Of a stretch of 7,750 bases of DNA, positions 6,001 to 7,750 are shown piece by piece. Source of the stretch: a virus. Lineage: Duplodnaviria; Heunggongvirae; Uroviricota; Caudoviricetes. The stretch's first letter is position 1. Each line of letters begins with the position of its first letter. Location of the stretch: positions 1-7,750 of the IMG/VR virus record IMGVR_UViG_2671180577_000001; one strand, 5' to 3'. Made by a program: the position numbers.

Positions 6001-7750
6001 ATCGCGCTGTGACGATGCTAATCCCAAACCTTACCCAACCCACCTGGTCACGCACTGTTAAGCCGCTGTATGACGCTCTGGTTGTGCAATGCCACAAGGA
6101 AGAGTCAATCGCAGACAACATTTTGAATGCGATCACACGTTAGCGCCATGATTGCCACGGATGGCAACATATTAACGGCATAATATTGACTTTTTGAATA
6201 ACTTTGGGGAAACTTGACATCAATAATGGGCGTTTTTTACATGTCATTGATGAGTCTCAATAACCTGCCGCCGAGTAGTTTTTATGCTCTGAATTGTATT
6301 TGTGTAGTAAACATGCTGACTGCAATGTAATAGAGTTTTTTTAGCCTGTAACCTCTTGACGGCATTGAATTGCTTTTGTTATGAGTTGTAAGCCAATGTT
6401 ATCATCTTGTATTGGGGTGGTTATGAAGGATGGTGCGCTGCTCAGGAGTTCTTCACTTTTTATTGCCTACATGGGATGCCTTGGATGGGGGAGTGCTTAT
6501 TTCTATGGATGGGGTACTTCTTTTTACTACGGCTTCCCATGGTGGATTGTAGGTGCAGGTGTTGATGATGTTGCCAGAAGTTTATTTTTTGCAGTTATCG
6601 TCATTGCTATATTTCTTATCGGTTGGGGTATTGGTGTTGTATTCTTTTTCGCAGTGAAAAGAAAACATTCTATGCAAGAGCTAAATGTATTTCGCCTTTA
6701 TTTTGCTGTGGAATTATTGTTTGTGCCGGCAATTATTGAGTTTTCTATATTGAGACAGAAGATTCAGGTACCTCTTTTGCTACTGTCAGCAGCGATTGCG
6801 CTGGCGGTTACAATTTCGATAAGATCTTATGGGCGATTTTTATCGGTATCATGCTTCTATGATAAGCCATTTATAAAAAAACATTTTTTTGAGATTGTGA
6901 TGATTGCTTTTGTGGCATATTTCTGGCTTTTTTCATTTCTGACAGGATATTACAAACCACAGTTTAAGAAAGAATATGAAATGATTAATTATAATGATGG
7001 TTGGTATTATGTTCTTGCTCGTTATGATAATTGTCTGGTTTTGTCTACTTCTTTCAATGCAGGTAGTAAAAGGTTTGTCATTTATCAATCAGCACAAGAT
7101 AAGAATCTTCAGGTTGATATTGTAAGGACCAGAATTTAATTGGCTGCATAAATAATATTTTAAGTTGCAAGTTGGCTATTCGTAGGAATAGAACCTTAGG
7201 CATGCTGAATGCGTTTTCTGAACATTGTTTTATAAACTGTGTCTGCTTGCTGTTGTGATCCTGCTTTTAGTGATGGTGATGATGGATTTCACCAGCAGGA
7301 TAATGTTGGTACTGACTGATGGCGCTCTGGTCTGCGGCATTGTGGTATTGCTGTGGCCGATGATGAAAAAACAGAATGAATAATCCTTGACTTTTTTGTT
7401 TACTGTTTATTAAAAAATCAACCGCATGGTGAATCCTCCTTGGAGGGGCTAAATGATCGAGTTTTAAGGGCACGTAGCGAGTTCTGTTTGATCATTGCAG
7501 AACTTAGCGGGAGGCGCCATGCGTACATCACTAATGTTATTTCCTTCTATCATTTTCCTTGTGAGTTCTGGCTGCGCATGGCGCGGCCTTTTTTTTATGA
7601 CCTGCCACTGGCAGATGGCCATCCTGTAATTTGATTCCGGTTCCGGCTTTTTAACTCTGCTCCTGTACACGGGAGAAATTCGATGTCGATTAAACATTAT
7701 GATGTTGTCAGGGCGGCGTCGCCGTCAGACCTTGCGGAAAAGCTGACACA

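Follow-up and report, generated by a model that had tools for sequence, protein, structure and literature searches.

Results

Gene content of the window and its lambda-type late promoter

The window (the whole 7750-nt stretch analyzed here, positions 1 to 7750 of IMG/VR record IMGVR_UViG_2671180577_000001) carries at 5520–6143 a 207-residue ORF that matches PF03589 and is 98% identical to lambda Q. Beyond the end of this gene the DNA aligns almost base for base with lambda as far as the PR' start; from there on it no longer resembles the 6S body and tR'. The aligned parts comprise a −35 hexamer TTGACT (6187–6192), the Q-binding region between the hexamers, the −10 hexamer, and a promoter-proximal −10-like element that reads AACGAT in lambda and AATAAT in the window. 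Lambda Q is known to bind between the promoter hexamers. On the basis of this alignment, a late promoter and qut site matching the Q protein of the window lie at about 6181–6235, directly after Q. They are followed by an AT-rich ORF of 252 residues (32–41% GC) without a Pfam match and by a DUF3927 ORF (7225–7383, PF13064). The element under study, which we call pasD for reasons given below, starts 1.24 kb after the Q stop codon, and the DUF1737 N terminus of nanS-p lies downstream. An earlier note, made from the sequence alone, had picked out in this interval a −35 hexamer, an A/T-rich −10, a hairpin followed by T8, an inverted repeat, and two small ORFs, and all of these are present where it had placed them. 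The coordinates of the element and of its parts are collected in Table 1.

Table 1. Coordinates of the pasD1 element in the window and allelic differences from it
Feature	Position	Strand	Basis or remark
−35 hexamer TTGACT, pasD promoter	7387–7392	+	Read in the sequence; TTG nearly invariant across 14 diverged family promoters
−10 region TAAAAA, noncanonical (no T at position 6)	7411–7416	+	Family-conserved block; putative function
PasD1 small RNA, 173 nt	7424–7596	+	Identical to NC_011601 1060260–1060432
P0 closing helix, 5' strand GCAUGGUG	7424–7431	+	Pairs with 7515–7522; starts at the RNA 5' end
P1 hairpin CCUCC-UU-GGAGG	7435–7446	+	CCTCC 7435–7439, GGAGG 7442–7446
Pseudoknot 5' strand AAUGAUC, holds the mini-ORF AUG	7452–7458	+	Complementary to 7490–7496
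P3 hairpin GAGUUCUG / CAGAACUU	7479–7505	+	Arms 7479–7486 and 7498–7505; loop 7487–7497
Pseudoknot 3' strand GAUCAUU, in the P3 loop	7490–7496	+	Pairs with the P1–P3 linker
CGGGAGG (P4 5' arm and loop remnant), then P0 3' strand CGCCAUGC (7515–7522)	7508–7522	+	
Published seed UGUGAG, U-rich single-stranded tail 5' of the terminator	7560–7565	+	Fig. S5 and table S7 of PMC8550237
Intrinsic terminator, 8-bp stem, 3-nt loop, U8; also Hfq-binding 3' module	7570–7596	+	Terminator ranking and fold
PasD2 and phage 434 copy compared with the window	7534, 7540, 7547, 7580, 7585		7534 A>G; one T lost at 7540; 7547 C>T; 7580 G>T; 7585 G>A

Identity with the small RNA gene pasD1

Alignment of the fetched loci showed that the interval matches PasD1 of EPEC O127:H6 strain E2348/69 at 173 of 173 positions and that the 37 bases on its 5' side are identical as well, whereas PasD2 of the same strain has five differences. 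PasD1 (alias E2348CN_0004) is a 173-nt RNA and PasD2 (741157–741328 of NC_011601) a 172-nt RNA (table S6 of PMC8550237); both were discovered by RIL-seq, were validated by Northern blotting, and depend on Hfq for their stability (Pearl Mizrahi 2021, PMC8550237). The EHEC homologue is EcOnc13 (Tree 2014; homology according to PMC8550237), for which the main text of Tree 2014 gives the general moron site only. The complement of the published PasD Northern probe, CATGCGCAGCCAGAACTCACAAGG, was located at 7557–7580 without a mismatch. One of the two suggestions in the earlier note had been an independent small RNA with ends near 7420 and 7596, in agreement with the ends of PasD1, and the short transcript that it expected on Northern blots or in RNA-seq is on record for the identical E2348/69 sequence at ∼173 nt (PMC8550237). 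Because the interval is identical to a validated RNA and its promoter hexamers hold their position in diverged relatives, the promoter–terminator unit is not a chance arrangement. We conclude that the interval is very probably pasD1, an already known gene for an Hfq-associated, trans-acting sRNA in the moron region of EPEC/EHEC lambdoid prophages. The identity itself was established in the present analysis; the expression, size, Hfq dependence, and RNA partners of PasD have been demonstrated in the literature for the identical sequence in E2348/69.

The genes upstream of PasD1 in E2348/69 are those of the window, namely RusA, a lambda-type Q of 207 residues, a hypothetical membrane ORF, and DUF3927. 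On the 3' side the two loci differ, a holin gene directly following PasD1 in E2348/69 PP4, whereas in the window the DUF1737/SASA esterase gene nanS-p follows, as it does at PasD2. PasD2 (E2348/69 PP2) and the copies in phages 434 and 2B8 represent the same gene with the same seed and the same place upstream of nanS-p, but they lie behind a Q82-like Q and the window copy behind lambda Q.

Relationship to STnc100 and distribution of the family

An Rfam search with cmscan aligned the full 206-position model of STnc100 (RF02076) with 7394–7599 with a score of 37.7 bits (E = 1.5e-5), which falls short of the gathering score of 47 and compares with 105–208 bits for canonical STnc100 copies; three PasD loci (L243, L244, and L002) gave no match at the gathering score. 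PasD and STnc100, a gammaproteobacterial sRNA, share their promoter architecture, the helices P0, P1, and P3, a linker-to-loop pseudoknot, and, within the PR' moron region, a place upstream of nanS-p. They differ in the 3' tail and the seed, and in the family alignment A3 (described below) the P4 3' arm of 7 nt is missing from PasD, a loss that accounts for the subthreshold Rfam score of PasD. We regard PasD as a diverged relative of Rfam STnc100. A preprint likewise describes STnc100 as a structural relative of the EPEC prophage sRNA PasD and reports that PasD adjoins Q, LpxR, and a sialate esterase gene (Zhu, Shabalina, and Storz; 10.64898/2026.05.13.724894). The window has Q and DUF3927 upstream and the start of nanS-p downstream of PasD, and LpxR was not found within 7.4 kb upstream.

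A megablast search of 5426 complete E. coli genomes located PasD at 908 sites in 678 of them, all with at least 95% identity and all chromosomal, and distant blastn of 7387–7600 against 50,697 phage records also found it in phages 434 and 2B8. A wider family set was obtained by scanning IMG/VR with a conserved 5' 16-mer and removing chance matches by blastn/regex similarity, which left 123 instances; the same 16-mer, a pattern too short for such a search, returned only chance matches in unrelated phyla from 596 Gb of genome contigs. The N terminus of nanS-p (KHYDVVR) was found on the same strand within 1.6 kb downstream in 95 (87%) of the 109 instances with enough sequence. Upstream neighbors included DUF3927 (28 instances), a DNA methylase gene (19), stx2B (5), and stx1B (1). 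The PasD gene follows a lambda-type Q in the window and in E2348/69 PP4, and a 229-residue Q82-like Q in phage 434, E2348/69 PP2, and strain 2014C-3011. PasD and STnc100 are accompanied by different Q types and by stx. On some of the family contigs two copies stand in tandem. One contig of an Stx2 phage has an STnc100 copy that is convergent with AsxR, which matches the description by Tree et al. The anti-sRNAs AsxR and AgvB (Tree 2014) are, like PasD, Hfq sRNAs and share with it the moron insertion site that lies between the moron coding sequence and the conserved downstream ORF, but they measure 51–60 nt, are encoded on the opposite strand, and have no sequence relationship to PasD. Neither was detected in the window, where PasD has no convergent AsxR/AgvB partner.

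Comparison with Q-dependent late leaders

The other suggestion in the earlier note was a PR'-tR'-like late-promoter module, that is, a Q-utilization promoter from another lambdoid lineage yielding a short terminated RNA like 6S or StxS. The layout and scale are indeed the same (a promoter, about 175 nt, and a strong terminator upstream of nanS-p and the lysis genes), and the pasD −35 hexamer is identical to that of lambda PR'. Lambda PR'-6S-tR' and StxS of Stx phages likewise yield a short transcript that terminates within the late operon, with a terminator that, as would hold for PasD, must be overridden by Q-modified polymerase if the downstream late genes are to be expressed. StxS reportedly shows that terminated leader RNAs of this kind can be Hfq sRNAs. 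PasD, however, shares no sequence homology with lambda 6S or StxS, lies apart from Q, and lacks any demonstrated Q-binding element. The window already possesses its own lambda-homologous PR'/qut directly after a Q that is 98% lambda, and pasD lies 1.2 kb further on, behind two moron ORFs. Distant blastn with 7387–7600 recovered seven of the 50,697 phage records, lambda not among them, and the interval lacks similarity to 6S/tR'. An identical element follows two types of Q, although a Q protein acts specifically on its own qut, and the relatives of the element occur after stx2B, stx1B, or a methylase gene, sometimes in tandem. Finally, RIL-seq shows that PasD has trans partners on Hfq. These observations make the late-leader suggestion extremely improbable, and we retain the assignment to pasD1.

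The promoter and the 5' end

The pasD −35 hexamer begins four bases past the stop codon of the DUF3927 ORF. A spacer of 18 nt separates it from the −10 region, which lies in an A/T-rich block (7406–7418) and is separated from +1 by seven nucleotides. Comparison of 14 diverged upstream regions of the family showed that the −35 TTG and a block TTT(G/A)TTAAAA are kept at a fixed distance, that the 18-nt spacer varies from T-rich to GC-rich, and that the RNA always starts with GCAUGG. Conservation of the two blocks at fixed spacing around a variable spacer, as found here, indicates that the promoter moves with the RNA. The promoter was not called in a generic consensus scan of the window because no −10 candidate ends in T. 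The numbers of promoter-like and terminator-like elements in the whole window were not above those in shuffled sequences, which means that matches to consensus would not by themselves have established the unit. Since RpoN binding at STnc100 is mentioned in one paper, we also considered a sigma-54 promoter and rejected it, as no GG-N10-GC motif is present upstream.

We propose that PasD1 would be transcribed from its own sigma-70-type promoter (TTGACT, 18-nt spacer, TAAAAA), with transcription beginning at G7424 and ending at the intrinsic terminator. The published 5' end of PasD derives from RNA-seq coverage and Northern size, not from triphosphate-end mapping (PMC8550237), and for this reason we infer, rather than read from mapped ends, that G7424 is the primary start. 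A coverage-based 5' end would also suit an RNA that is processed from the long PR' transcript as a 3'-UTR-type sRNA of the DUF3927 moron, with no promoter of its own, as would the noncanonical −10 region and the lack of a comparably strong terminator between PR' and 7570. Such an origin is very unlikely, given that the −35 and −10 blocks accompany the RNA at fixed spacing into unrelated upstream contexts, that helix P0 starts exactly at nucleotide 1, and that an RpoD ChIP-exo signal has been reported at the STnc100 copies of Salmonella. Transcription from the adjoining promoter is the reading that we carry forward.

A covarying pseudoknot in the 5' domain

The 47 distinct 5' domains of the family were aligned with MAFFT (alignment A3), and a consensus fold was calculated with RNAalifold, which returned the closing helix P0 together with P1, P3, and P4. 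P0 is kept in all 45 STnc100-type rows with an aligned 3' strand and is also present in the minimum free energy (MFE) fold of the single PasD sequence; the family helix P1 (columns 12–17/22–28) is 100% paired. In addition, the linker that follows P1 shows complementarity to the loop of P3, and this complementarity occurs across the STnc100/PasD family in several sequence versions: AUCAGC/GCUGAU, CUGGUG/CACCGG, UAUCAGUAC/GUACUGAUA, UAAUGAC/GUCAUUG, and, in PasD, AAUGAUC/GAUCAUU. It is class-specific but only partly clean, some cross-class combinations reaching 5–6 bp with G-U pairs. With the pseudoknot included, 95.9% of the cells in A3 were paired, compared with 37–43% when the partners were slid by one to three columns. 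Pairing is undercounted in A3 because MAFFT misplaced the 3' strand of PasD P0 and shifted the CUGGUG pseudoknot class by one column. Changes on both sides were seen at 10 pairs, namely all six of the aligned pseudoknot pairs and four of the eight P3 pairs. No shuffle equaled the observed covariation score, in a sample of related sequences ascertained through a shared 16-mer. The conservation of structure and covariance in related prophages that the earlier note had named as a check was accordingly found here, with helices and pseudoknot kept.

The MFE fold of PasD alone (z = −2.07) is nested, with the pseudoknot strands paired and P3 lost; the family-supported fold is preferred over it because P3 and the pseudoknot both covary. 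Covariation supports a pseudoknot in the 5' domain shared by PasD and STnc100, a feature that is new here and is not mentioned in the preprint 10.64898/2026.05.13.724894. The 5' two-thirds of PasD1 would form a compact domain, common to STnc100, that consists of P0, P1, P3, and the pseudoknot between the linker and the P3 loop.

Coding potential

The interval contains an ATG at 7453 that opens a 4-codon mini-ORF (MIEF) in a GGAGG-N6-AUG arrangement, a 36-codon ORF (7519–7629), and a TTG-initiated ORF of 64 residues. The phage 434 record annotates the last of these as a 62-residue CDS with a ribosome-binding site and the product name "putative membrane protein," and RefSeq places a hypothetical protein on the minus strand over the locus. 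Ribosome footprints are reported on some STnc100-annotated copies in EDL933 and could be taken to favor a small protein gene; they are uninformative on coding, since they range from none to values similar to those of the bona fide sRNAs CyaR and RyhB. That any of the four ORFs is a small protein gene is hardly credible on the following grounds. Conservation does not extend to the small ORFs, since a deletion of 1 nt shifts the frame in PasD2 and phage 434, cutting the 36-codon ORF to 14 residues and making the C-terminal half of the TTG ORF unrelated to that in the window. No Pfam match of the small ORFs or of the minus-strand protein reaches the gathering cut-off, and the minus-strand ORF is flagged at the PasD2 locus as frameshifted with an internal stop. 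The mini-ORF AUG and the GGAGG are absent or replaced in STnc100 relatives, and the same positions covary as RNA helices. The fold accounts for all three apparent coding signals, the "Shine-Dalgarno" sequence being the 3' arm of P1, the mini-ORF AUG part of a pseudoknot strand, and the ATG at 7519 part of the P0 3' strand. The doubt expressed in the earlier note about these ORFs was well placed, and the inverted repeat in which it saw the GGAGG is P1. The comparisons made here establish pasD1 as noncoding.

The terminator and transcription from PR'

The hairpin GGCUGCGC-AUG-GCGCGGCC (7570–7588) is GC-rich and is followed by T8 (7589–7596). Its folding energy is −15.1 kcal/mol; it ranks first among the terminators of the window, and no other hairpin that precedes a T-run within 6144–7600 is as stable. 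In the PasD2 allele, G7585 is replaced by A, which turns the U7573-G wobble in the stem into a U-A pair. Neither terminator ranking nor hairpin folding revealed a terminator of comparable strength between the lambda-type PR' and 7570; the PasD terminator is the first strong terminator 3' of PR', an observation that is new here. The nanS-p and lysis genes that follow are mitomycin C-inducible, nanS-p in the manner of late genes. With PR' upstream, no strong terminator before 7570, and these induced genes downstream, unmodified PR' transcripts would end at the PasD terminator, and Q-modified polymerase would read through into nanS-p and the lysis genes. The suggestion made earlier that Q-modified polymerase must read through 7570–7596 is a reasonable one.

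The seed region and its partners

Hfq usually binds at a module of the kind seen here, a terminator hairpin with U8. The U-rich tail that bears the seed is mostly unpaired in the centroid fold of PasD1. The published target motif of PasD, CUCACA(GG), is complementary to the seed; the RIL-seq chimeras of PasD1 map to its 3' part, corresponding to 7548–7598 of the window, and the partners include aceE, gltI, yhdW, uspA, spr, tir, bfpB, and cesF (PMC8550237). PasD2 is a member of the most abundant CsrA-bound chimera/RNA pair. The best-supported account is that of a trans-acting sRNA composed of a structured 5' domain, a seed tail, and a terminator/U8 module. On Hfq, the UGUGAG seed would pair with CUCACA motifs in mRNAs, and CsrA, too, binds the near-identical PasD2. 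We found no published phenotype or validated target regulation for PasD in the literature, and a regulatory outcome on its targets is presumed.

A possible role in cis upstream of nanS-p

The near-constant neighborhood (nanS-p within 1.6 kb on the same strand in 95 of 109 instances) and a covarying pseudoknotted domain more elaborate than that of a typical Hfq sRNA could also point to a cis-acting leader or attenuator of nanS-p, possibly besides the trans role, in which the 5' domain gates the terminator and sets esterase expression in the lysogenic state. Positions 7514–7523 of PasD1 (GCGCCAUGCG) are perfectly complementary to the top of the terminator (7575–7584) and might act as an antiterminator. 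However, the G7580-to-U change in PasD2, the nanS-p-adjacent allele of E2348/69, breaks this complementarity without compensation, and the complementarity is absent from the other terminator class; we have therefore rejected this antiterminator. Variants of P1 (GGAGGGG to GGCGGGG or GGUGGGG) have no compensating change in the terminator, PasD1 of E2348/69 has no nanS-p downstream, and nanS-p is induced by mitomycin C like late genes. On balance a cis leader is quite unlikely, and we keep it as a low-probability addition to the sRNA role, not as a replacement for it. In a tentative and rather unlikely extension, PasD/STnc100 would have a dual function, acting in trans on Hfq/CsrA and, through the pseudoknotted 5' domain, in cis (as a terminator gate or a protein-recruiting leader) to set lysogen-state esterase expression, the PasD terminator being a functional tR' where morons replaced the lambda 6S/tR' body.

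Discussion

The earlier interpretation of this interval is partly supported: it holds a small RNA, and it is not a late-promoter leader. Since the locus is a published sRNA gene, the main value of the result is its correct annotation. In public records the pasD1 stretch is wrongly entered as a "putative membrane protein" or a "hypothetical protein," and pipelines that rely on Rfam overlook PasD because its score lies below the STnc100 threshold. The covarying pseudoknot could guide work on the function of PasD and STnc100, and a second guide could be the near-constant place upstream of nanS-p, which in the window is 3' of a PR' without a tR' of its own. Together, the pseudoknot and this placement bear on the insulation of late-region morons in EPEC/EHEC lysogens.

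The late promoter and the region before PasD

The Q gene of the window encodes a protein 98% identical to lambda Q, and the lambda-type late promoter PR' that follows it aligns with its lambda counterpart across the -35 element, the Q-binding region, the -10 element, and the -10-like pause element, the last of which reads AATAAT in the window where lambda has AACGAT. Beyond approximately the PR' start site there is no further homology to the 6S RNA of lambda (the short leader RNA) or its terminator tR', so PR' of the window has lost its own terminator. An AT-rich moron lies between PR' and PasD1, the Hfq-binding sRNA gene. 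Its 252-aa ORF had no Pfam match. This ORF and the DUF3927 ORF are both located downstream of PR' and ahead of the PasD terminator, so PR' may drive their expression in a lysogen, with that terminator as the boundary.

Positions of features in the window and in related IMG/VR loci
Feature	Position	Strand	Remarks
Lambda-type late promoter and qut (Q-utilisation) site	window 6144-6240		immediately 3' of Q; alignment to lambda
AT-rich moron	window 6381-7383		32-41% GC vs ~50% in nin/Q region
DUF3927 ORF, 52 aa	within window 6381-7383		in moron; named TciB in phage 434 record
Weak hairpin and T4/T5 sites	window ~6521 and ~7214		in moron
'Hypothetical protein', RefSeq genomes	window 7464-7697	minus	overlaps PasD
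Convergent STnc100 copy (207.7 bits) and AsxR (88.1 bits)	L226 1012-1271		Stx2 phage contig
Tandem STnc100-type pair, example	L207 156-365 and 643-848

The RefSeq protein annotated over PasD is 132 aa long in prophage PP4 of EPEC strain E2348/69 and a frameshifted pseudogene in PP2, and the phage 434 record has a plus-strand 62-aa 'putative membrane protein' over PasD. Both calls are probably spurious, having been placed over an RNA gene.

Comparison with STnc100 and GcvB

In the related STnc100 family, the most frequent terminator class, GCCCCUCUCCGGAGGGGC (e.g., L205, L213, and L226), nearly matches the RNA's own P1 hairpin, CCCCCUGUGCGGAGGGG, in sequence. The top of the PasD terminator, by contrast, resembles the 5' end of its own RNA (GCAUGG) rather than P1. 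Such likenesses may point to alternative pairing, to a protein site that the two elements share, or to a duplication. The convergent STnc100/AsxR pair of L226 is situated ~100 nt downstream of stx2B; in neither the window nor E2348/69 was a partner of the anti-sRNA type AsxR or AgvB detected adjoining PasD. Two tandem STnc100-type copies, ~468-483 nt apart, are present in L130, L139, L140, L149, L162, L196, L207, and L210. The copies differ in pseudoknot sequence class and in tail, which suggests that these RNAs diversified through duplication or recombination.

The GcvB model gave a weak match at window 7472-7595 (19.4 bits, E 0.7). The PasD seed is GU-rich and the sites targeted are CA-rich. 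The RIL-seq partners of PasD include gltI and ilvC, which are GcvB targets, and it is therefore possible that the targets of PasD overlap the GcvB regulon.
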